DNA of 20,000 nt from an uncultured virus (IMG/VR IMGVR_UViG_3300020042_006808) (Duplodnaviria > Heunggongvirae > Uroviricota > Caudoviricetes > Crassvirales), in IMG/VR virus record IMGVR_UViG_3300020042_006808. The stretch is one strand, 5' to 3'. A model generated the notes under the pieces. That model had not been told where the DNA came from. It did no database searches and saw only the letters and a list, made by a program, of their open reading frames with translations. This document shows, in pieces, positions 63 through 19,999 of the stretch (position 1 is the stretch's first letter; the number at the start of each line of letters is the position of its first letter). The position numbers and the translations under genes were made by a program.

Positions 63-88
63 GGGAGTACTCTCTAGGGGGTACTCCC
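63..88 (+). other. Strong GC-rich leader hairpin
   Basis: GGGAGTAC (63-70) pairs perfectly with GTACTCCC (81-88), extended by TCT/GGG around a CTAG loop. No U-tract follows, so it is not a classic terminator. Confidence 0.7.
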
Positions 89-139
89 TCAGTACATGGG
101 TGTGTGCCCATGCCGATGATTCCTAAAGGATGAAACTGA
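89..139 (+). ncRNA. Type III hammerhead ribozyme (variant core)
   Basis: Stem III TCAGT(89-93)/ACTGA(135-139); NUH triplet GTA (92-94); stem I CATGGG(95-100)/CCCATG(107-112); core CCGATGA (113-119, consensus CUGAnGA); stem II TCC-TAAA-GGA (121-130); GAAA (132-135). Confidence 0.75.
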
Positions 140-161
140 AACCCAAAAAACAATTTACAAC

Positions 162-1215: not shown

Positions 1216-1259
1216 TATTAAACATTTTATTATCTTTACAATTCATTAAATAAAATAAA

Positions 1260-1562
1260 ATGAAACAAGACGTTTTTAATCAATACGTGGACAGGGTCAT
1301 TGACCTCTTTGGGATAACCAAGGAGGCTTTCTTTTCCAAAACAAAGAAGCGAGAGGTAGTCGATGCTAGGCAATTGATTTACTACCTGTGTGCCAAGAGG
1401 CCGATGCAAATAACTTACATCGAAAGGTACATGAATGATGCAGGGTACGAAATCAAGCACTCGTCAATCATCCATGGCATATCTGCTGTAGAGAAAAGAA
1501 TAGCAGAAGACAAGGACTATGTGTCCGTAATTAAAGAAGTAGAAAGAGCAGTTTTTATCTAG
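1260..1562 (+). CDS. Stand-alone DnaA C-terminal (domain IV, HTH)-like DNA-binding protein
   Basis: FSKTKKREVVDARQLIYYL...KHSSIIHGISAVE parallels the DnaA domain IV pattern (SxxRxRxxxxARQIAMYL...DHTTVLHA). No AAA+ domain. Confidence 0.75.
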   Translation: MKQDVFNQYVDRVIDLFGITKEAFFSKTKKREVVDARQLIYYLCAKRPMQITYIERYMNDAGYEIKHSSIIHGISAVEKRIAEDKDYVSVIKEVERAVFI

Positions 1563-1570
1563 GAATCAAT

Positions 1571-1831
1571 ATGTATAGTTCAGAAGAGTTTTACGATGAG
1601 ATATTTGAGTTCACCTACGATGACTCAGACTACGTCTGGAAGGGCGACTACAGGGTCGAGTCCTATGATGAGGATGGAGACTACGACACTCCTCCTAGTG
1701 GCGAAACAAAGGTTAAGCTAATTCATACTACCGAGTTGCTTAAAACAAATGATGAGGGCGAGTACGAGAACATTGTACTTGACCATGATTTGAAGTACGT
1801 TATTACAGAACACATTAAAGAATCACTTTAA
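1571..1831 (+). CDS. Hypothetical highly acidic protein (86 aa)
   Basis: Very D/E/Y-rich ORF in a colinear gene run. Confidence 0.7.
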   Translation: MYSSEEFYDEIFEFTYDDSDYVWKGDYRVESYDEDGDYDTPPSGETKVKLIHTTELLKTNDEGEYENIVLDHDLKYVITEHIKESL

Positions 1832-1844
1832 CACCCCAAACAAA

Positions 1845-2468
1845 ATGGAAAAGAAAAAATCAGTATTCGACAGGCTAAGTGCCATCAACGTCAACGACCA
1901 CGTTGAAAAGAAAAGTAACCTTACCTACCTATCATGGGCATGGGCATGGTCAGTAACAAAGAAGGAGTGCCCTGATGCGACTTACAAAATTTTGCCTACA
2001 GATTACGATGAGGCACTTGGGTTCATGTGTCAGACAGAGGTGACCATCGAGGGCGAGACGCTAGGTATGTGGCTTCCTGTCATGGACGGAGCGAACAGGT
2101 CTATGAAGAAGACTGAGTACACTGGTAAGTACGGAAAGATAGTTGATGGAGCTACTACGTTCGACATCAACAAGACCATCATGCGTTGCTTGGTAAAGAA
2201 CCTAGCCATGTTTGGCTTGGGTATCTACATCTATGCAGGTGAGGACGTTCCTGAGGCAGAGACATCAACACCTACACCTGCTCCTGCAAAGGCCAAGGTT
2301 AGCACAGGGCTAATTGATTTGGAGGTTGGTGATGAGAATTGGAACGGAGTTATTAAGTATGCCAAGGACAACAAAGATTTGGGCATCAGTAAGATTGGTC
2401 AGCAGTTGAGCAGGAAGTACAACATGAGCAATGAAGTGAAACAAGCAATCGTTAACCTTATAAAGTAA
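1845..2468 (+). CDS. Single-strand annealing protein, Sak/Rad52-like (DUF1071 family)
   Basis: VEKKSNLTYLSWAWAW, MWLPVMDGAN, DINKTIMRCLVKNLAMFGLGIYIYAGED are characteristic of DUF1071/Sak-type SSAPs. Pro/Ala linker and helical C-terminal domain follow. Confidence 0.85.
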   Translation: MEKKKSVFDRLSAINVNDHVEKKSNLTYLSWAWAWSVTKKECPDATYKILPTDYDEALGFMCQTEVTIEGETLGMWLPVMDGANRSMKKTEYTGKYGKIVDGATTFDINKTIMRCLVKNLAMFGLGIYIYAGEDVPEAETSTPTPAPAKAKVSTGLIDLEVGDENWNGVIKYAKDNKDLGISKIGQQLSRKYNMSNEVKQAIVNLIK

Positions 2469-3238
2469 TGAAAAACCTATTGGAGACTATTGACCTTACA
2501 GCGGAGCCAAATATCTTGGCTCTGCTTAATGACGACAAGGAGTACTACAGCGGTATTGGAAAGAACTATCTGTCCAACTCGGACATAGGCACGTTACTTA
2601 ATAATCCAAAGGATTTCGGTAAGCCTAGAGAAGACAACAAGGCTTTCATGGATGGCAGATACTTTCACCAATTGATTTTGGAGCCTGAGAAAGCAGAGAA
2701 TACTCCATTCGTGGACGTGAGTACACGGAACACCAAGGAGTACAAGAACTACTGCGAGACAAACAATCTCCCGTTCTGTATGCTAAAGAAGGAGCAGGAG
2801 GAGGTTCAGCATCTAGTTAATATCATCAAGGGTAATATCACGTTCTACGATGAGATTTTTCGAGAAGGCAATCAGTACGAGGTTCCTGCTGTTGGAATGA
2901 TTCAGGGCATGATGTGGAAGGGTAAGGCAGACATTGTTGGTTGGGACTTCTTGATTGACCTAAAGACCACTGGTGACATTCAGAAATTTAAATGGTCAGC
3001 CAAGGCATACAACTACGATTCTCAGTGCTATATTTATCAGTATCTATTTGGAAAGCCTTTGGTGTTCTACGTAATTGATAAGGTCACAGGTGTGTTGGGT
3101 GTTTTTAAGCCCACCATGGACTTTATTGACTCAGGTGAGGCCAAGGTATCCAAGGCCATAGAAGTCTTCTCTAAGTACTTCGGAAACACTCCTACGGACA
3201 ACATCGAGAACTACTTCATAGACGAGTTCTTAATGTAA
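2468..3238 (+). CDS. PD-(D/E)XK recombination exonuclease (RecE/DUF3799-like)
   Basis: LSNSDI, GRYFH, E...KGKAD...IDLKTT and YDSQCYIY motifs. Translationally coupled (TAATG) to the SSAP gene. Confidence 0.85.
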   Translation: MKNLLETIDLTAEPNILALLNDDKEYYSGIGKNYLSNSDIGTLLNNPKDFGKPREDNKAFMDGRYFHQLILEPEKAENTPFVDVSTRNTKEYKNYCETNNLPFCMLKKEQEEVQHLVNIIKGNITFYDEIFREGNQYEVPAVGMIQGMMWKGKADIVGWDFLIDLKTTGDIQKFKWSAKAYNYDSQCYIYQYLFGKPLVFYVIDKVTGVLGVFKPTMDFIDSGEAKVSKAIEVFSKYFGNTPTDNIENYFIDEFLM

Positions 3239-4630: not shown

Positions 4631-4658
4631 AGGGGGAGACAATCTCTCCCTTTTTTTT
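4631..4658 (+). terminator. Rho-independent terminator
   Basis: GGGGGAGA-CAA-TCTCTCCC stem followed by T8, 11 nt after the ssb stop. Confidence 0.85.
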
Positions 4659-4664
4659 GGCCTT

Positions 4665-11032: not shown

Positions 11033-11420
11033 AACGGACACAGATATTTTAAGGGAAAAGAAAGCAATTGATTTGTTCGTAAGTATTTTTGGAGGGTCAT
11101 ATAAAAAGCTGGACCCTCAGGACGTTGACTACAAGTTGTCCGATAATAGAGGACAACTGATTGCATACGTTGAAGTGGTCGCAAGGATTAGGAGCATGAA
11201 GACATCATACCCTCTGCCAATAACTTTGAGCAAGCTAAACAAGCTCATAGAGAAGCGACTCAATCCTGTGATTGTGTGGGCCTGTGACGATGGCATCATC
11301 TACGCTGAAGCAACCAAGCTAGAGGGAGCAATAAAGTGGGGAGTTGCTCCTCCCCTTAATGATGAGATGATGGTCTACTACGATAAGCAGAAGACTATGA
11401 AGTACGTGAGGTACGTTTAA
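11022..11420 (+). CDS. PD-(D/E)XK-fold protein, possibly catalytically degenerate
   Basis: E...DVDYKL...AYVEVVAR pattern with V at the expected Lys of ExK. ATG at 11022 preferred over TTG at 11013. Confidence 0.55.
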   Translation: MIFETDTDILREKKAIDLFVSIFGGSYKKLDPQDVDYKLSDNRGQLIAYVEVVARIRSMKTSYPLPITLSKLNKLIEKRLNPVIVWACDDGIIYAEATKLEGAIKWGVAPPLNDEMMVYYDKQKTMKYVRYV

Positions 11421-14400
11421 TTTTTCTTTTTATATCCGTACTCCTTGTCTTCTCTCTGTCTAGTTATTCTAGTAAGTTTTTTTCTAACAGCATCTTCTGC
11501 CTTATACTTTTCATCCCATTCAGAGCCACGTCCAAATCTCTTTATGTAAAGACTTTTGTTATATCTCTCCATCTCAGTTTCATTGTCATATCTTACTTCA
11601 TTATCTGAGTCGTACAACAATATTTTTTTCTGCTCTTCTTTTCTTTTATTATAATTAGTTACCGAATCTTTCTGTTCGTCAGTGCCATTTATTTGAATTA
11701 TTTTTCTTCTGATAACTTTCAACTGTTCCTCATCAATTGTTATATCTTTAACTGCTCGAAGGTCTTCTAGATTTTCTCTTTTTTCCATTAAAGAAGCAGG
11801 AGATTCAGCAGCTTCAGTAGCTTTAGTTTTGACTTTTGCATTTTTTAAGTCTGCATAGATTGATTTGTTTACAGCCCTCCTGATGTCTTTATATAAAGGA
11901 ATAAATGATAAGTTACCTAGAATCTCTAAAGGTATTCTCTGTGTTACTACTCTTTTCTCCCGCTCTATAGCATCGGCTTCTTTCTTGGTAGTACCTCCTG
12001 ATAGTACAGCTTGTATTGAGCCTGACAATAAGTTTTCACCTACAAGTTTTCCTGTTTGAAGAGCAGGTCCAAAAGAACCTCCTAGTCTAAATAAGAAGTC
12101 ATCTAAGGTTGACTTATCTTCTTTACTTCTTGGAATGATTGAGTACGCTATTGCGTCTTCATATTGGTCATACTCTCCCTCTCTAAGGAATTCAAGGTAC
12201 TCTTCATTAAAGTATTCAAGACCCAAGTTAGTAACCATTTTTACTGTGTTACCAAAGTCTCTGCCAAAGAACAAGGACCCAACTGTACCTGTGATTGCCT
12301 GACCTACACTTTGAAGGAATGATTTTTCCTCCTCTTCTTCCTCATCCTCTATTCCAAACAATGGAGCAGCCAATCCTATTATGCCATCTGCAAGTGCCCT
12401 GCTTAGCATACTATACACAGTCATACGTGTTGCAACTGCTGCCAACAACATAGCTCCTTTAGTCCTACTCATAGGTCCATCTCCAACCATAGCGTGAATT
12501 CCAGTCCTAGCACTCATGAATTCAAATATCAAGAACCTAGTCATGTAATTATTAAAGTTGTTATAAGCCTTAGTCATTGGAGTTTGATTTGGCCTAGAAA
12601 CACCTTTAAGAATACCCATGAATGAGTTGTCTGTAGCTCCTGCCTGAACAGATGTTTGGTCTGCCGTTGCTCTTGCTTTATCAATGGCATCTTTGTTTTC
12701 TTTTAAATACGCCTCGTTGTTCTCTCCGATTAATTTGAAGTCAACATCTTTACCTGATGCTTTTTTAAATTCATTTGCAAATGAGCCAAACCAAAGGGCT
12801 CTCATTACAACTTTATCAGGAGTTGAAATCATGTTGTCTGCTAAAACCTCAACTGCATTGGTATATTTTTTGCCACCAAGATTCCATAGCTGTTGAATCC
12901 TATTAACGATAGGACTCTTAACTCTTGAACCACCCCCAACTCTTTGTCTCATGGCGCTAGTGTCCATGAAGTTGCCTGATAGACTATCCTCTGGGAATAT
13001 TCTATTTGTCTGCGTACTAGAAATGTTCTCCAATACCAATGGCCCCAGTGGGGACATAATAATGTTAGCGTACGTAGTCCCCTTGAAGAATGACTGTGGC
13101 TCAGCAAGTATAGCAAACGATATGTTCGATGTTAATTCAGCAGCAAATCTTCCTGTGCCAGCAAGAACAGAACGGTAACCCATTCTACTTATGTAGTTTA
13201 CAAATTCATCTGTTGCCGTATTATCCATGATATTATTGATAAGCAGATTATCTACAGCCTCATTGTATGCTTTTCTAAGAGCATTTGTTACCTGTCTTTG
13301 AAGCTTGGTTACATTTTTTCTTTCATCTAAAGTTTTTTCAAGTTGATTTAATGCTATCCTTGCAGTCTTTATGGGTCCTGTAAGATTGTAGTCCAACAAT
13401 ACATACTTGGCACCACGACTTGCTGATGAGAATATATCGAAGTTTATTGGCTTAGCCCCCTTAGTTCTTTTTTCTAATGACTTAGCTTTAGTTGATGGAT
13501 TCATATTTGCATTTGCAGCATTTGTAATGTCTGTTGCAGATTGAATGTCTGCATTTTTATCATCCCCTAAGACAATAAGGTGTAAATAGTTGTCTAACCC
13601 ATCAAATACTTGACCTCTAATAATGTTGGAAGTAAATTCTGCTTTACTTCTAAGGCTTTCATTTATCTTTCTAATATCATTAATGGCATCCTTCTCAGCT
13701 TGATTGAAAGAATCATATAGCTTCTCAATACTTATCTGACCATCTCTTTGAAACATAGCACGTATATATTTCAAATTCTCCAATTCTATTTTACCATATA
13801 TCTTGGCCTTTTCTTTTTTGATGTGCTCTATAGTTTTATCTAAGTACTCAATAGCAGGATTAACTTGCTCATTGCTTTGATTTGACTCATATTCAAGTTG
13901 TCTCATATAAGTCATCATCTTCATCTTAGATAAAGATATGGACTCTTGGTTAAAAGAAAATGACTGAGCAAGCTTTTGTTCTGCTTTATTTAATATTGAA
14001 TTAATTCTTTTTAGTTCTGCTTTGTACTTGGCTTCTGCCTGAGCTGTCTTTAGAAGTAATGCATTAAAAACATCCTTGCCTTTAAAGTTTCCTAGCGCTT
14101 GGTCAATATTAAAAAGAGGAATTCTCTTTATTGCTTCAAGCAATGCGCCTTCGTTGGTAAACAAATTTTTAATTTTTCCAATTGCGTTAGATATTATTGG
14201 CGGAGTGGCCTTAGAAGAAGAATCATCAAGAACTGCCTCGTCCCTTATGCCATCTATCTTTAGAGATACTTGATAAGCATAACTAGGAAGATAGTTGTTA
14301 TTAATATTATTGATAACCTTCAATAGATTTCTTAAATCATTTAGGCCCAGCTTCATTAAGTTCTCTGCAGAAACATTTTTAAGAAGCTCAGCAAATTTTT

Positions 14401-17400
14401 GAGCAAACTGTCTTTCTTCTACAGATGGAAGCTCATTAATACCTTTTATCTCAGCAGCTTTAATGCCTTTGATTGCTTCTTCTTTCTTCTCCTTTATTTC
14501 TTCCTCAGATAGCTTTTGTTTTTCATCCTGAGGGACAATCTCTTTCTTATACTTTCGCATAAGGTCAGCATCTTCCTCAGTTATTTCTCCCTCCTTAACC
14601 ATCTTTTTTATGGTAGCAGCATAATCTAACTCACCTTCAACAAAAACTTTATTGTCTGAATTTTCTAAGATATCAGCTAATTCATAAGCCTTTGATTGCT
14701 CTTCATCTACTGCTCGAAGGATAGCTTCAGTATCACTTTTGACCACATCATATTGCTCTAGCTTTAGCACCTGCTGATTAGCACCAAGCATCTCAACTAG
14801 CTCAGCATACCTTTCTAGGTATGAATCAGGTATTAGCGATGGATTAATTGACAGCAACTTATTTAAAGACCCACGCAACGTAGTAGCAATACCAATCTTA
14901 GATGCTATATTTTTCTTAGCCTTAGTTATCTTTCCCTTTAATCCATCAATTGTATCACGATATTCAGCGTCTGCAAATACCTTGGCCATGTAGTCAATAA
15001 AGTCTTTTACTGACTGCTCATTGAACGCATTTAGTTTAGCCAATCTAGTTGTAACACTAGTCACTTGTCTCGCTGTAAGCTTTCCTGATGCGTCTAATGC
15101 TTTAATCTCTTTTGCTAGGTCAGATGTTATTTTTCTCCACGCTTTTATCGCATCCTTTGCTCCTTCGGCTAAGTCTTTTATTCTTTTGTTCAGTACCTCC
15201 TTTTCAGTCATGGTTATCTTAGTGATATCATTAATGATACCAATAAGTCTACCTGCTCTTGGGGCTGACTTCTCTTTAACACCGCCCATCTTACGAACTT
15301 CACGTACTAACTTTTCCTTTTGTACGTCAGTAGCATCTATATATGTTTTTGAGTTCTTTAGCTTGCTTATGACCTCAGCCAGTGGCATTCCTTTTACAAT
15401 TAGATTCTCTAGTTTTTTCATTAAAGAATCATAACCACTAATAGTTTCTTCAGATAATGTTATTCTTCCTGCGGCAGGGATATCTATTCCCATTGCCTTG
15501 TTAATATCAGCTTCGGAAATACCTTTTCCTTGAAGGAATAATCTTATTACATCCTCAGAAAATCCCTGAGCTCTTGCTTGTTGTACTACCTTCTTTGCCT
15601 TACTATTAGTATCAAGTTGAGCCTTACCTTTAAATTCATTCTTAATCTCATTCAAATCCTGTTCAAGCATCAAAGAATAATTATCAAATAATACTTGGTC
15701 TTCTCTTCTTACATCTTCTGTTTCAAAGAGTAATGTTCTTTTTCTCTGCTCAGGAGTTAATGCATTTCTTACCTCAACATTTCTAGCTTCAACTTCCCCT
15801 GCTGCTCTTAAGTAAAGATTAAAATTAGAATCAGAAATTAGGTCTAAATTTTTTCCATAAAGCTTTTTAATATATTCTCTTTTATTATTTACTTCTTTTG
15901 AAGTACCTAAATCTTTTATTAATTTATAGTTTCCATATGCTAGTTTATAAGCTTCACGTGCTTTTTTTACTGCCTCTTTATTGACAAAAAACTTTTCTTC
16001 TAATTCTTTTAGTATATCCCTTGTCTTATTAACATCATACTTGATTACATTAATAATTGAATCAAACATTTTGCCTGATGTTGCTGGGTTTTGACCTCCT
16101 TCAAAAATTTCTACCGTCTGAATGTAATGTTGTATTTCATGTAGTGTAGTAAGGGTAGCTGCTTCAATATTTGTATTATAATAGTTTTTATTTATTAAAA
16201 TTTTATTTTCACTAGGTGTAAATCCGCCAAAGTTATTTGCTCCTAAATCTTTAAATACTACTTTTATATTTTTTGCTTCAGGATATGCCGCATATAAATC
16301 GGGTGCAGAAAATATATCCCCCAAGATAGCTACTCTAGATTCAGCATCATTATTTTGAATATCTAATTCCTTTTTTAAATCATTAAGGTCAATATCCTTG
16401 AACTTACCATCAGGAATTTCATATCTCCACTTTTTATCCTTGCCTTTCTCCCAACCTGTAGAGAATCTAATATCTCTAGGAGTCATATTAATCGTCTCCA
16501 TAGCCTCCGCTAAGTTTAAATTAAACTTAACTCTAGCAGAAAGATTAGCATTTTTACCAATTAACTGAGCCTTTCCTTTTATTCTTGGCTCAAGTTCTCT
16601 AATTACACCTGTCTCTGCTGCAATAACTTTAGTTTGCATTGGTTTGGTTTTTTCTTCTCTACCGCCAATTACATCCTTATACTTTTCTTTTATAGCCTCA
16701 GGCATGATATCCCAAGAATTAATCTTCTTATCAGGAACACCAACTACTTCACCAGTAATAGCAAACTCATAGGTAGAATGAGGGGCTTTGCCTGACACTC
16801 CCGTTGGTCTGCCAACAAGCATGATATCATTCTGATTGAAACTATTTTGTCTGTAGAACCCATCTCTTAATTCATTGTAGTCAATGAATGCATTGAATGA
16901 ACCCAGTAACTCTTTTAATGAGCCCGTAGGTGCAGTCTTCAATGCTCCAATCTCACCTATTGATATTAGGAAAGGTTTTCTTTTAGGGCTATCAGCCAAC
17001 TCTTTAAATGAATTTACTTCATTCAATGCGTCCTTGATAGTTCTTAGCTCTACCGTTTCTTTTTCAAAGTTGTTGATTGCTTCTTTAAACTTATTAAAGT
17101 CTGAGGTCTTATTGATTCTCTCAGCCAATAAGTCCAATACCCTCTTATTAAATAGCTTTGCCTTTTCAGGAGAACCGCTAATAAAGAATATGTAATCAGC
17201 CTGATTAATTTGATTTGTCAAAGTCTTCTCAGGAAGACCACTCGCCCAAAGGATTCCCTTGCTTCGGTTAGCCGGGTCTAGAGCAAAGCTTGGCCCTGCG
17301 TCTAGGTAATGAGTGTCTCCAACTACTTCATCAAAGTAATTCCCTCTACCCAATTGGTCTGCCATCCAAAACCAAATCTTTTGTTTCTTAGCAACAATAT

Positions 17401-19999
17401 CATCGATTAAAGCATTGATATCAATCTTGTCTGCTTCAGTTACAAATGATAATGGCAATGGAGTATTGGTAAAATTCAAAGAAGATTTACCTCTAATTGT
17501 TCCACTAATTGTAGTTGGGTTTCCTACAGGGACAGATAGGCCCTCTTGAATTGCTGTAATATCGTTAGGATTTATTCCTTCTCCCTTACGAATAGACTCC
17601 GATATATTTTTGAAAAATTCAAAAGCCTGTCTGTTATCTATTGCGCCTTGAAATGGAATAAATGCTCCATTAGTAAGTTTAGATACAAGCTCATTAATTA
17701 TTTCTGCAATCTTTTGATATGTACTTACAGCTAAGTTACCTTCTTGTTCTACTAAAGTAGCAGTTAATTCAGCAAGATACTCTTCATATGAATCAACCTC
17801 AGAATATTGGTTTGCAAACTGCGAAAGTATAGAGTTCTGACTTTGATTTAATACAGATGTAATCCTATTTTTAAACGTCTTAAATGTTTCAGGATTTTCA
17901 CCAAATGCTTTTAACATAACTCCGTGCGCAACTTCATGCGCCAAAGTTCTATTGTTAGCCTTATTTAAATTGATATCAATCCTGCCTACATAATTACCAT
18001 CAGGTTTTTGCAAATAAGTAAAGTACCCTGCTGAATCAAGTTTACCATTAAGGCCACGCATTGCCTCAGCATAACTGTTATCATCATCATGTAATATGAT
18101 ATCAAATTCAGGCAGAATAGACTTTAGAGTATTTAATGTTTTTTGAGCAAAGTCAACAATTGACTTCTTCTTATTATCTGTTAATTTATTTTTTAATGAT
18201 TCAAGTTGAATAGGGTCACTAACTAAAACTCCCTGAGATTTAGGAGCCTCTTGTTGTAACTCAGGTTGAGCTCTCTCATCTTCAGCAAACATCTGCTCCA
18301 TACTAGCCATCTGCTGTTCTTGAGTCAGAGGTTGAGCAGTAACTTGAGGAATTGTAATAGGAGTAGGATTTCTATACATAGAATCACGTATTGTGAAATC
18401 TTTGTTTTTTCCTTTGTTCTCAACAAATCCAAGTGACTTATAAAATTCAACTAATCTTTTTACAGAAGAACCTCCAAAAGATGTAGAAGGTGTTAGTATC
18501 AACTTCTTTCCTGCTCTATCTGCAAATTCAACAATCTCTTCCATGACCTTGGTACCAACACCCTTTTTCCTTTGGTCTTTAGGTACAACTATCTTAGGAA
18601 CAGATATTGAATTATCAGTTTCATTATCCTGAAGCTCTAGCTCTACTCCATATTTAGCGCTTAACTCATCAGCAAAAACTGATGTTGTTTTTGTTTCAGG
18701 TATTTTTGTAGTTACTTCTTCTTGGACACCTTCTTGGGCAGTGACTTGAGGTTCTGCTTGAGGTACTCCTTGCTCCACTTCTTGGCCAACTGTGGTTGTT
18801 GGCTGAACAGGTACTTGACCTGCTGCTTGCTCTTGAACGGCATCTTGTTCTTCTTTTAAGTCCTGTAATTGTTTTTCAATTCTTTGTCTCTCTTCCGTTG
18901 GTAGTTTAGTAGATAAATCAAGCTCTATCGCAGTATCGTCCTCTTCAACCGCATTAGTTAACTCAGCTATCTTAGCTCTTCTTTGAGCTGCTGCTTCATT
19001 TGTTTCTGATTCAATCCTCTGAACGTCTCCTTGTTCAGATATCTTTACAAGCTCATCATTAATTTCTGATATTCTATTCTTCTGACGAGACACCAATGCT
19101 GCGTCTTTACCATCAATGAATTGTTCTAAATCTTTTCTCTCCTTCAAAAGGTTCATCGCCTCCTTCTTTTGCTGAAGAGTTAACCCATCAGGGATTTGAC
19201 GATACACCCCAACCGCTGTACGGTAGTTCTGTAGTTCTTCCTTGGCGTCAGATGGGGATATCTTTCCACTAGCAATTTTTTCTTTAAGGCTAATTATATA
19301 TGCGCTCTGTAAACTGCCATCGTTGGCCATGTTTTCAAAAGTCTCAAAAGTGGAATCATCCATCTTGAGAAATCCCTTCTTGCTATATGCAGCTCCAACA
19401 GCATTAGGCACCCCTAATACGAAACCACCAACAGCCTCCTGAGCTCCTGCTATAGCTACATTCTTAACAAATTCATTTATAGTTTTTGGGTTTTTAAAAT
19501 ATTCATCCCCCTTAATCATGTTGTAAACGGCTTTAAATCCCGTCTCTGAAATTTCTTGAGCAGCGCCTGTCTCTGCTTCAGCAAGTCCTGCTGCAGTTAT
19601 AACTAATGCGCCTTTAGCAATTCTACTTTTTACTTCATTCTCTGCTAATTCTCTAAGTGATGTGTAACTAGCTCCTTTACCTGCTTTACCTAAGACAGAC
19701 ATAGTTATGCTAGTTACTATACCCTTACTTTTCAACACGTTTCTAAGCCCATAAGCCTCTAGAACAGATGATACTAATCCAATAGGAGCAATGATTGCAG
19801 CTTTTTCACTTTCAGATATATTAGCAAAGGCAGGGTCATTCTCCATTTCTACCATTAATCCATCTGAAACTTGAGCATACATTTGAGATGTTCTTTGAAC
19901 CCAACCCATAGGATTGCTTCTTCCTATCATAGCAGGAAGAGACTGTGCTAATCCTAATATAGCACCCCCCCAAAAACCTTCTTTTGTTAATTGCTGCCA
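11417..19999 (-). CDS. Giant polyvalent (probably virion-ejected) protein, 5' partial: GNAT + two zincin HExxH domains + LPD23-like region + unknown domains
   Basis: The frame stays open past the track's ATG to the window edge (WQQLTKEGFWGGAILGLAQSLPA-M), so it is at least 2860 aa. GNAT QRKKGVGT...FYKSLGF; HEVAH...EEYLAE; TGWEKGKDKKWRYEIPD...LYAAYP...HEIQH...GEVEARNV. Confidence 0.85.
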   Translation of the reverse strand, partial: WQQLTKEGFWGGAILGLAQSLPAMIGRSNPMGWVQRTSQMYAQVSDGLMVEMENDPAFANISESEKAAIIAPIGLVSSVLEAYGLRNVLKSKGIVTSITMSVLGKAGKGASYTSLRELAENEVKSRIAKGALVITAAGLAEAETGAAQEISETGFKAVYNMIKGDEYFKNPKTINEFVKNVAIAGAQEAVGGFVLGVPNAVGAAYSKKGFLKMDDSTFETFENMANDGSLQSAYIISLKEKIASGKISPSDAKEELQNYRTAVGVYRQIPDGLTLQQKKEAMNLLKERKDLEQFIDGKDAALVSRQKNRISEINDELVKISEQGDVQRIESETNEAAAQRRAKIAELTNAVEEDDTAIELDLSTKLPTEERQRIEKQLQDLKEEQDAVQEQAAGQVPVQPTTTVGQEVEQGVPQAEPQVTAQEGVQEEVTTKIPETKTTSVFADELSAKYGVELELQDNETDNSISVPKIVVPKDQRKKGVGTKVMEEIVEFADRAGKKLILTPSTSFGGSSVKRLVEFYKSLGFVENKGKNKDFTIRDSMYRNPTPITIPQVTAQPLTQEQQMASMEQMFAEDERAQPELQQEAPKSQGVLVSDPIQLESLKNKLTDNKKKSIVDFAQKTLNTLKSILPEFDIILHDDDNSYAEAMRGLNGKLDSAGYFTYLQKPDGNYVGRIDINLNKANNRTLAHEVAHGVMLKAFGENPETFKTFKNRITSVLNQSQNSILSQFANQYSEVDSYEEYLAELTATLVEQEGNLAVSTYQKIAEIINELVSKLTNGAFIPFQGAIDNRQAFEFFKNISESIRKGEGINPNDITAIQEGLSVPVGNPTTISGTIRGKSSLNFTNTPLPLSFVTEADKIDINALIDDIVAKKQKIWFWMADQLGRGNYFDEVVGDTHYLDAGPSFALDPANRSKGILWASGLPEKTLTNQINQADYIFFISGSPEKAKLFNKRVLDLLAERINKTSDFNKFKEAINNFEKETVELRTIKDALNEVNSFKELADSPKRKPFLISIGEIGALKTAPTGSLKELLGSFNAFIDYNELRDGFYRQNSFNQNDIMLVGRPTGVSGKAPHSTYEFAITGEVVGVPDKKINSWDIMPEAIKEKYKDVIGGREEKTKPMQTKVIAAETGVIRELEPRIKGKAQLIGKNANLSARVKFNLNLAEAMETINMTPRDIRFSTGWEKGKDKKWRYEIPDGKFKDIDLNDLKKELDIQNNDAESRVAILGDIFSAPDLYAAYPEAKNIKVVFKDLGANNFGGFTPSENKILINKNYYNTNIEAATLTTLHEIQHYIQTVEIFEGGQNPATSGKMFDSIINVIKYDVNKTRDILKELEEKFFVNKEAVKKAREAYKLAYGNYKLIKDLGTSKEVNNKREYIKKLYGKNLDLISDSNFNLYLRAAGEVEARNVEVRNALTPEQRKRTLLFETEDVRREDQVLFDNYSLMLEQDLNEIKNEFKGKAQLDTNSKAKKVVQQARAQGFSEDVIRLFLQGKGISEADINKAMGIDIPAAGRITLSEETISGYDSLMKKLENLIVKGMPLAEVISKLKNSKTYIDATDVQKEKLVREVRKMGGVKEKSAPRAGRLIGIINDITKITMTEKEVLNKRIKDLAEGAKDAIKAWRKITSDLAKEIKALDASGKLTARQVTSVTTRLAKLNAFNEQSVKDFIDYMAKVFADAEYRDTIDGLKGKITKAKKNIASKIGIATTLRGSLNKLLSINPSLIPDSYLERYAELVEMLGANQQVLKLEQYDVVKSDTEAILRAVDEEQSKAYELADILENSDNKVFVEGELDYAATIKKMVKEGEITEEDADLMRKYKKEIVPQDEKQKLSEEEIKEKKEEAIKGIKAAEIKGINELPSVEERQFAQKFAELLKNVSAENLMKLGLNDLRNLLKVINNINNNYLPSYAYQVSLKIDGIRDEAVLDDSSSKATPPIISNAIGKIKNLFTNEGALLEAIKRIPLFNIDQALGNFKGKDVFNALLLKTAQAEAKYKAELKRINSILNKAEQKLAQSFSFNQESISLSKMKMMTYMRQLEYESNQSNEQVNPAIEYLDKTIEHIKKEKAKIYGKIELENLKYIRAMFQRDGQISIEKLYDSFNQAEKDAINDIRKINESLRSKAEFTSNIIRGQVFDGLDNYLHLIVLGDDKNADIQSATDITNAANANMNPSTKAKSLEKRTKGAKPINFDIFSSASRGAKYVLLDYNLTGPIKTARIALNQLEKTLDERKNVTKLQRQVTNALRKAYNEAVDNLLINNIMDNTATDEFVNYISRMGYRSVLAGTGRFAAELTSNISFAILAEPQSFFKGTTYANIIMSPLGPLVLENISSTQTNRIFPEDSLSGNFMDTSAMRQRVGGGSRVKSPIVNRIQQLWNLGGKKYTNAVEVLADNMISTPDKVVMRALWFGSFANEFKKASGKDVDFKLIGENNEAYLKENKDAIDKARATADQTSVQAGATDNSFMGILKGVSRPNQTPMTKAYNNFNNYMTRFLIFEFMSARTGIHAMVGDGPMSRTKGAMLLAAVATRMTVYSMLSRALADGIIGLAAPLFGIEDEEEEEEKSFLQSVGQAITGTVGSLFFGRDFGNTVKMVTNLGLEYFNEEYLEFLREGEYDQYEDAIAYSIIPRSKEDKSTLDDFLFRLGGSFGPALQTGKLVGENLLSGSIQAVLSGGTTKKEADAIEREKRVVTQRIPLEILGNLSFIPLYKDIRRAVNKSIYADLKNAKVKTKATEAAESPASLMEKRENLEDLRAVKDITIDEEQLKVIRRKIIQINGTDEQKDSVTNYNKRKEEQKKILLYDSDNEVRYDNETEMERYNKSLYIKRFGRGSEWDEKYKAEDAVRKKLTRITRQREDKEYGYKKKN
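15614..16579 (-). repeat. Pair of KGKAQL-encoding linker repeats bounding the LPD23/zincin module
   Basis: KGKAQL is encoded at 16562-16579 and 15614-15631, and a related RGKSSL at 17477-17494. Confidence 0.6.
18332..18751 (-). repeat. 18-nt imperfect direct repeats (PQVTAQ) flanking the GNAT domain
   Basis: TTGAGCAGTAACTTGAGG (18332-18349) versus TTGGGCAGTGACTTGAGG (18734-18751), 16/18 identical. Confidence 0.65.

Follow-up and report, generated by a model that had tools for sequence, protein, structure and literature searches.

Organisation of the leader region

The window, by which the whole stretch of 20,000 nucleotides analysed here is meant (IMG/VR record IMGVR_UViG_3300020042_006808, an uncultured virus of the Crassvirales), begins with a leader that is read on the + strand and is composed of a promoter-like block, a GC-rich hairpin, a hammerhead element and an A-rich spacer, followed by the first gene. 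The promoter-like block is intergenic, spans positions 1–57 and contains TTG at 7–9, TAAGTT at 30–35 and TATCAT at 40–45. It is conserved, sharing 37 invariant columns with four relatives, and its identity amounts to 91% with relative G003 over 1–57 and to 77% with relative G001. As a strict scan for consensus sigma-70 promoters found nothing in 1–161, the promoter and the transcription start that are placed here near 1–57 are to be taken as putative. The genome does not end at window base 1, since the near-identical metagenome contig L035 extends further upstream, where a + strand open reading frame (ORF) ends just ahead of the corresponding position.

The GC-rich hairpin (63–88, + strand) comprises 11 pairs with a CUAG loop, is the minimum-energy fold, and directly adjoins stem III of the hammerhead (89–139), without a U-tract behind it; in the relatives, the gap between hairpin and stem III is 0–2 nt. 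Behind the hammerhead, an A-rich spacer of 22 nt without a Shine–Dalgarno motif (140–161, + strand), which is identical in the related locus L149, leads to the first gene (162–437, + strand), encoding a protein of 91 amino acids that was assigned to no Pfam family and has homologues in IMG/VR.

This order (GC-rich hairpin abutting stem III, hammerhead, A-rich spacer, ATG) is shared by relatives on phage contigs and freshwater metagenome contigs. The distance from GAAA to the ATG is 22–32 nt in 19 of 23 loci, and the module stands ahead of at least four unrelated small proteins. On its upstream side, it is located directly behind the promoter block in the window, L035 and L029, behind one ORF in L036 and L149, and behind two ORFs in G001.

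Downstream, the + strand encodes small ORFs, a Sak single-strand annealing protein, a PD-(D/E)XK-like nuclease (Pfam DUF3799), a primase-like protein and an SNF2 helicase. The conservation of block 1–57 and the replication genes downstream make the leader a putative part of an early polycistronic mRNA. RNA contigs from four metatranscriptome runs covered the early region in pieces (353–585, 886–1142 and 1220–3000), none of which spans 1–352.

Three further observations concern the remainder of the window. A Shine–Dalgarno-like motif precedes one of 22 starts, the leaders being A-rich; the scarcity of Shine–Dalgarno starts, the motif TTG ... TAnnTTnG in 1–57 and a BT4734-like primase domain together give hints of a host of the phylum Bacteroidota. 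Between two ORFs, at 4631–4660, lies a GC-rich hairpin followed by eight T, which was the runner-up match of covariance model R1 and is likely an intrinsic terminator. The minus strand carries an ORF at 11417–19999 that runs off the window (at least 2837 amino acids), with an LPD23 large polyvalent protein domain, a GNAT domain and weak tape-measure-like matches. The size of this ORF, above 2800 amino acids, had prompted consideration of an N4-like phage with hairpin promoters, which was rejected as Pfam shows a polyvalent protein and not a virion RNA polymerase.

Anatomy of the hammerhead element

All elements of the hammerhead were located on the + strand by direct reading. Stem III is formed by 89–93 with 135–139 (5 pairs), its 5′ strand corresponding to positions 16.5–16.1 and the pair U93–A135 to 16.1–15.1. 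The cleavage triplet G92 U93 A94 (92–94) is GUA, which satisfies the NUH rule and places the predicted scissile bond between A94 and C95. Stem-loop I (95–112) consists of six pairs (95–100 with 107–112) and the loop UGUGUG (101–106), and is followed by the core strand C113 C114 G115 A116 U117 G118 A119 (113–119; positions 3–9), which reads CCGAUGA and has C114 in place of the consensus U4. Stem-loop II (120–131) carries U120·U131 at position 10.1/11.1, where the consensus has G10.1–C11.1, then three Watson–Crick pairs (121–123 with 128–130) and the tetraloop UAAA (124–127). The element is completed at 132–139 by G132 A133 A134 (G12 A13 A14) and the 3′ strand of stem III from A135 (A15.1) to 15.5, the first four letters being GAAA. 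Window core positions 3, 5–9, 12–14, 15.1 and 16.1 correspond to the type III consensus; within CUGANGA/GAA, position 4 alone differs.

An earlier note on this DNA, made from the letters alone, had described a complete three-stem hammerhead with GUA, CCGAUGA and GAAA at 89–139 and a predicted cut after 94, 67 nt ahead of the first ATG; the direct reading bore out each of these elements, including the ATG at 162. It had also pointed to U as the first base of loop I and A as the last base of loop II, and both are present in the window as well as in all 26 rows of the family alignment. In the available text of Chi 2008 (PMC2553840), these two bases are the partners of a Hoogsteen pair that is conserved in natural hammerheads, and a loop I–loop II contact between them may also form in the window RNA. 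Such tertiary contacts are argued to offset core variants in the sections available of Perreault 2011 (PMC3088659).

For the 61-nt RNA 85–145, the three-way junction was the minimum-energy fold at −14.8 kcal/mol. This energy is unremarkable (z −1.51; 18 of 200 shuffles were equally stable), and the proof that the element exceeds chance rests on homology, described below, and not on fold energy. For transcripts with a start at 53 or further downstream, the hammerhead was the fold of lowest energy. With a start at 45 or before, positions 45–52, at the conserved 3′ end of block 1–57, can pair with 131–139 (G12–A14 and the 3′ strand of stem III), which is 1.2 kcal/mol better than the hammerhead; this pairing is probably coincidental, because G003, which is without a hammerhead, conserves these letters too.

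Homology and covariation

The closest IMG/VR relative, G001, whose first-gene protein is 84% identical to that of the window, has the same element in the same place with a canonical core. Its counterpart of window 83–157 contains a GUC triplet, CUGAUGA, G10.1–C11.1 and a different but pairing stem II, and is matched by the Rfam type III hammerhead model RF00008 with 46.9 bits (E 2.1e-9).

A covariance model, R2, was built from 22 relatives, with the window, L029, L036 and L031 left out. It matched window 88–141 with 74.8 bits and an E-value of 2.9e-20, the runner-up on both strands of the 20 kb reaching 9.3 bits. The window element is therefore homologous to canonical hammerheads and is the sole copy in 20 kb; a second hammerhead was found in the window by neither R1 nor R2.

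The search with Rfam hammerhead models that the earlier note had suggested returned no match to the window copy, neither at the gathering score nor at E ≤ 10 over bases 1–400. At E ≤ 1, RF00008 detected 12 of the 20 family loci, with 32–48.7 bits, the gathering threshold of 48.5 bits being reached by one of the 20, and it missed all five loci with U10.1–U11.1 (U–U) among the 20 tested. As the Rfam type III model misses the tested U–U copies, standard annotation undercounts phage hammerheads of such kind.

An alignment of homologous leaders, likewise suggested in the note, gave covariation in all helices. In 26 distinct sequences, 96.2% of the cells were paired and 19 of 24 pairs were compensatory, with none of 500 shuffles as high, these being figures from an alignment fitted to a covariance model, which favours pairing. 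The compensatory pairs were distributed over stem I (5 of 6), stem II (3 of 4, namely its three Watson–Crick pairs), stem III (3 of 5) and the upstream hairpin (8 of 9 modelled pairs), and shifting the pairing partners lowered the paired cells to 35–47%. An earlier MAFFT alignment of 20 sequences gave 95.1% paired cells and 12 of 24 compensatory pairs. The G–U pairs are compatible with + strand RNA only. The best explanation for window 88–141 is descent from a type III hammerhead lineage that is found commonly in uncultured phages from freshwater and in others, and the initial classification, a type III hammerhead whose core is variant, is now backed by homology to canonical-core copies, by stem covariation and by the conserved U of loop I and A of loop II.

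Census of relatives

Relatives were collected in several scans. In those that fixed stem I together with a portion of the core, all five matched stretches in viral contigs were hammerheads, as were 23 of 44 stretches in metagenomes, the remainder being chance, coding or tandem-repeat matches; among representative prokaryote genomes, none of 27 stretches was a true hammerhead (all coding or tandem-repeat), and no host or prophage was found there. A hairpin-anchored scan returned 32 stretches, four of which were true hammerheads, all with a canonical core, and the others coding. The exact 17-mer of the core gave eight stretches in viral contigs, all of them chance matches. Core-variation counts from several of these searches are biased by the fixing of stem I or of core parts.

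An unbiased sample was obtained via homologues of the downstream protein, in which the module was present upstream in 6 of 9 viral loci. Ahead of the same gene, the module is missing in the relatives G002, G003 and L152, and is hence dispensable; no other ribozyme was found at E ≤ 1 in relatives without the module. Stem I is of different sequence in the copies of L149, L150, L153 and L154, and also in a second copy that G004 carries. The triplet is GUC in 16, GUA in 9 and UUC in 1 of the 26 family rows, and GAAA is present in all 25 complete rows.

In freshwater metagenomes, 14 DNA runs carry 0.66–0.75 of the words of the window sequence, one of which is possibly its source. Among INPHARED phages, megablast gave no match, and distant blastn gave just short matches to the Sak gene.

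Variation at core positions 4 and 10.1/11.1

In the 26 family rows, U4 with G10.1–C11.1 (G–C) occurs 17 times, C4 with U–U four times (window, L029, L036 and L154), U4 with U–U three times (L028, L031 and L149) and C4 with G–C twice (L020 and L033). Wider scans of IMG/VR were anchored on loop I and GAAAC, with 10.1/11.1 left free, and the matches were subjected to a descriptor demanding at least 5 of 6 pairs in stem I, 3 of 3 in stem II and at least 4 of 5 in stem III. The scan for U4 gave at least 131 stretches, and 132 of the 139 matches listed passed the descriptor; among these 132 listed copies, position 10.1/11.1 was G–C in 80, U–U in 47, A–A in 4 and G–U in 1. The scan for C4 gave 13 stretches, seven of which passed (six distinct), all seven with perfect helices (6/6, 3/3 and 5/5 in stems I, II and III); here, 10.1/11.1 was U–U in four, G–C in two and C–A in one. 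The window lineage and the metagenome loci L033/L051 are further cases of C4. The share of C4 in the class is accordingly at most about 5% (7 versus at least 132), in counts subject to the ascertainment bias of searches in which core parts were fixed. Matches with A or G at position 4 numbered six, and none of these was a true member.

Since U–U was found in 47 of the 132 U4 copies among the matches listed, it can be regarded as a normal state of this class of phage hammerheads, and covariation in all three stems was seen in the 21 distinct U–U copies. Natural U10.1–U11.1 hammerheads exist according to the text available of Perreault 2011 (PMC3088659), where this mispair is stated to support more cleavage than any other. 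With U–U frequent in the class and tolerated in print, G10.1–C11.1 is a consensus feature but not an absolute one. The earlier note had counted two deviations in the core, one of which, C4, is indeed unusual, whereas the other, U10.1–U11.1, is mainstream and no lesion.

For position 4, the same passages of Perreault 2011 (PMC3088659) report that U4C ‘considerably decreases activity in vitro’, yet leaves enough in vivo for viroid infectivity, and cite Ambros and Flores 1998 as the source of this viroid-hammerhead change. Roberts 2023 subjected a type III hammerhead to deep mutational scanning, in which activity was low for every single substitution in the CUGA turn, as far as the available part of that report goes. 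The suggestion in the earlier note that the variant core may slow cleavage is in line with both sources. No literature report of C4 combined with U–U was found, a search on hammerhead U4C having returned Perreault 2011 alone.

Every C4 copy stands at a tip beside U4 relatives, and the rarity of C4 is as a mildly harmful change would show. L154, whose downstream protein is 31% identical to that of the window, has the same C4 with U–U, and differs from the window by one compensatory pair in each of the three stems. Its neighbour L153 has a canonical core. Across the ribozyme, the window lineage (window, L029, L035 and L036) shows no differences, and therefore offers no evidence of selection after C4 had arisen. 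Owing to too few independent lineages, no association of C4 with U–U can be claimed from the counts, in which U–U is present in 4 of 7 C4 copies and in 47 of the 132 U4 copies listed. C4 is the real oddity of the window copy and probably slows cleavage but does not kill it. As both odd core positions recur in relatives, the copy is probably a working but slower ribozyme. Compared with the published variants, the present case is distinguished by the occurrence of C4 and U–U together, in a DNA phage and again in the distant L154, each alone being already known in nature with activity retained.

Proposed mechanism and alternative explanations

Hammerhead self-cleavage yields a 2′,3′-cyclic phosphate and a 5′-OH. 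The reading preferred here, to which a probability of roughly 0.64 is given, is that the window copy is a real member of the type III lineage, set in a module of hairpin, ribozyme, spacer and ATG that acts as a self-cutting leader and is slowed by C4. The transcript would most likely start in or just after the conserved block 1–57. Its leader would fold as a hammerhead, with the terminator-like GC-rich hairpin 63–88 stacking directly on the short open stem III, and would cut itself co-transcriptionally between A94 and C95. The cut would free a short 5′ piece ending in the hairpin and a 2′,3′-cyclic phosphate, and the remaining mRNA would start with a 5′-OH on stem-loop I, beside the ribosome site. 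Co-transcriptional self-cleavage is the best-supported mechanism because of the abutment of the hairpin, the fixed distance to the ATG and the varied upstream contexts, and cleavage by the window copy itself is considered probable. The likely use of the module would be to provide an identical, hairpin-capped 5′ end for the downstream mRNA whatever sits upstream, the upstream RNA receiving a hairpin 3′ end. A role in mRNA stability or insulation is put forward tentatively, as somewhat less likely than not, and the 5′-OH end may change the stability of the mRNA.

A bolder version, which appears rather unlikely, is that C4 with U–U represents a selected slow core that has arisen or spread in unrelated freshwater phages, the module being a natural insulator whose cleavage rate would set the level or timing of early-gene expression. 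If the insulator reading is true, cleavage would be needed to provide the first early mRNA with a hairpin-capped 5′-OH end at a ribosome site without a Shine–Dalgarno motif.

Alternatively, the element could be a crippled relic of an active ancestor, in which C4 on top of U–U has cut cleavage below a useful rate, the remaining structure serving as stable hairpins or having not yet decayed. The low activity of U-turn single mutants in the available part of Roberts 2023 and the strong in vitro reduction by U4C in that of Perreault 2011 (PMC3088659) are compatible with this, as are the scarcity of C4 (7 versus at least 132), the identity of the window lineage across the ribozyme with no selection visible since C4, the lack of an Rfam match to the window copy and the absence of the module from some close relatives. 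A decaying element does not account as well for the perfect helices in 7 of 7 passing C4 copies, nor for the distant L154, in which the same C4 with U–U is accompanied by compensatory changes in three stems. Moreover, A or G stands at position 4 in no true member (0 of 6 such matches), the residues of the loop–loop contact are intact, natural U4C and U–U variants are reported active (Perreault 2011, PMC3088659, in the portion available), and the lineage is present in many freshwater runs. Loss of function is regarded as unlikely on this balance, with about the weight of a serious minority explanation.

It was further considered that the module serves the upstream RNA, with hairpin and ribozyme replacing a terminator and protecting the 3′ end of the RNA of upstream genes as transcription continues, and that it is in the window a leftover without a present role after deletion of the upstream ORFs. 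In G005, a hairpin of the same type stands by itself ahead of a U-run, resembling an intrinsic terminator, and L044 has a hairpin with a U-run ahead of its hammerhead; a stop codon precedes the module in L036, L149, G001, L028, L153 and L154, and the window, L035 and L029 are without the ORFs that separate promoter block and module in relatives. Against this explanation, loss of upstream ORFs does not separate the module from the downstream gene, its distance to the next ATG is constant (22–32 nt in 19 of 23 loci), and the spacers of the window and L149 are identical though their hairpins differ. As an exclusive explanation it is held to be distinctly improbable, and upstream and downstream roles are in any case compatible.

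A chance match or a DNA-level signal, such as an N4-like hairpin promoter for a virion RNA polymerase or a replication origin, to which the non-significant fold energy (z −1.51) and the very large minus-strand ORF had first pointed, is refuted by the Pfam result on that ORF (a polyvalent protein with LPD23 and GNAT, not an RNA polymerase), by compensatory changes and G–U pairs that fit + strand RNA, and by the score of the leave-out model R2 (E 2.9e-20), and neither hairpin recurs in the window.

Comparison with known self-cleaving leaders

Self-cutting as proposed here was compared with published systems, each being described as far as the cited text was available. The type III hammerheads of phages and prophages in RF00008 (clan CL00010) resemble the window copy in the three-helix junction, the open stem III, the NUH triplet and the intergenic location. 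Unlike the RF00008 consensus, the window copy has C4 and U10.1–U11.1 and falls outside what Rfam reports. For prophage hammerheads, Perreault 2011 (PMC3088659) proposed the processing of long phage transcripts, and Weinberg 2019 (PMC6765202) describes the function of bacterial and phage hammerheads as still largely elusive.

With regard to the tertiary contact, the sTRSV class (Chi 2008, PMC2553840) shares with the window a stem I of six pairs, a loop starting with U and a stem II tetraloop ending with A. The present family departs from that class in its tetraloop, which is for the most part AAAA, GAAA or UAAA instead of a strict GNRA, and the putative contact is deduced from the letters.

RiboJ (PMC7536230), a hammerhead with a hairpin placed between promoter and ribosome site, normalises the 5′ UTR, and its uncleaved mRNA decays faster. 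The window module is likewise a hammerhead with an adjacent hairpin between a promoter-like block and a ribosome site. RiboJ is engineered and has its hairpin downstream of the ribozyme, whereas the hairpin of the window lies upstream and abuts stem III.

The glmS ribozyme (Weinberg 2019, PMC6765202) is a self-cleaving 5′ leader whose cut alters the fate of the mRNA, as is proposed here. It differs in needing a metabolite and in destabilising the mRNA; nothing in the window suggests a ligand. The hammerheads that RNA viruses carry in their 5′ UTRs (Lopez-Galiano 2026, PMC13725137) are self-cleaving leaders too, but are linked to eukaryotic cap-independent translation.

The family offers a clean test case, in which a fixed architecture (hairpin, ribozyme, about 25 nt, start codon) is found in several upstream contexts and a natural allelic series at two core positions (U4/C4 and G–C/U–U) is placed in otherwise matched scaffolds. 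A comparison of these natural alleles would show the weight of cleavage speed in vivo, and whether phage hammerheads act as makers of mRNA ends or as insulators.

Further occurrences and multi-copy loci

In L033/L051, very large metagenome contigs (616 kb and 500 kb) that may stem from a cellular genome or a jumbo phage, the hammerhead has C4 and a UUC triplet and lacks the hairpin upstream. Arrays of tandem repeats, with periods near 50 nt and near 167 nt, were met in metagenomes (L025, L045 and L060) and in an Armatimonadota MAG (L101, L105, L116 and L117); their unit consists of a hairpin and CCGAUGA-like letters without the 3′ half of a hammerhead, and they form a repeat family unrelated to the ribozyme.

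Type III hammerheads of phages and prophages are present in one to several copies per genome in the available account of Perreault 2011 (PMC3088659), as they are in the family of the window. Multiple hammerheads of the class were observed in one IMG/VR contig (L328–L331) and also in L298, L311, L345, L299/L300 and L325/L326, the viral contigs with several copies containing either four or five hammerheads within about 5 kb or pairs 300–550 nt apart. This layout is the gene-punctuating arrangement described for prophages. In L153, two modules (597–686 and 1012–1094) flank a homologue of the window's first gene, and the pair would together free a single-gene RNA with 5′-OH and cyclic-phosphate ends.
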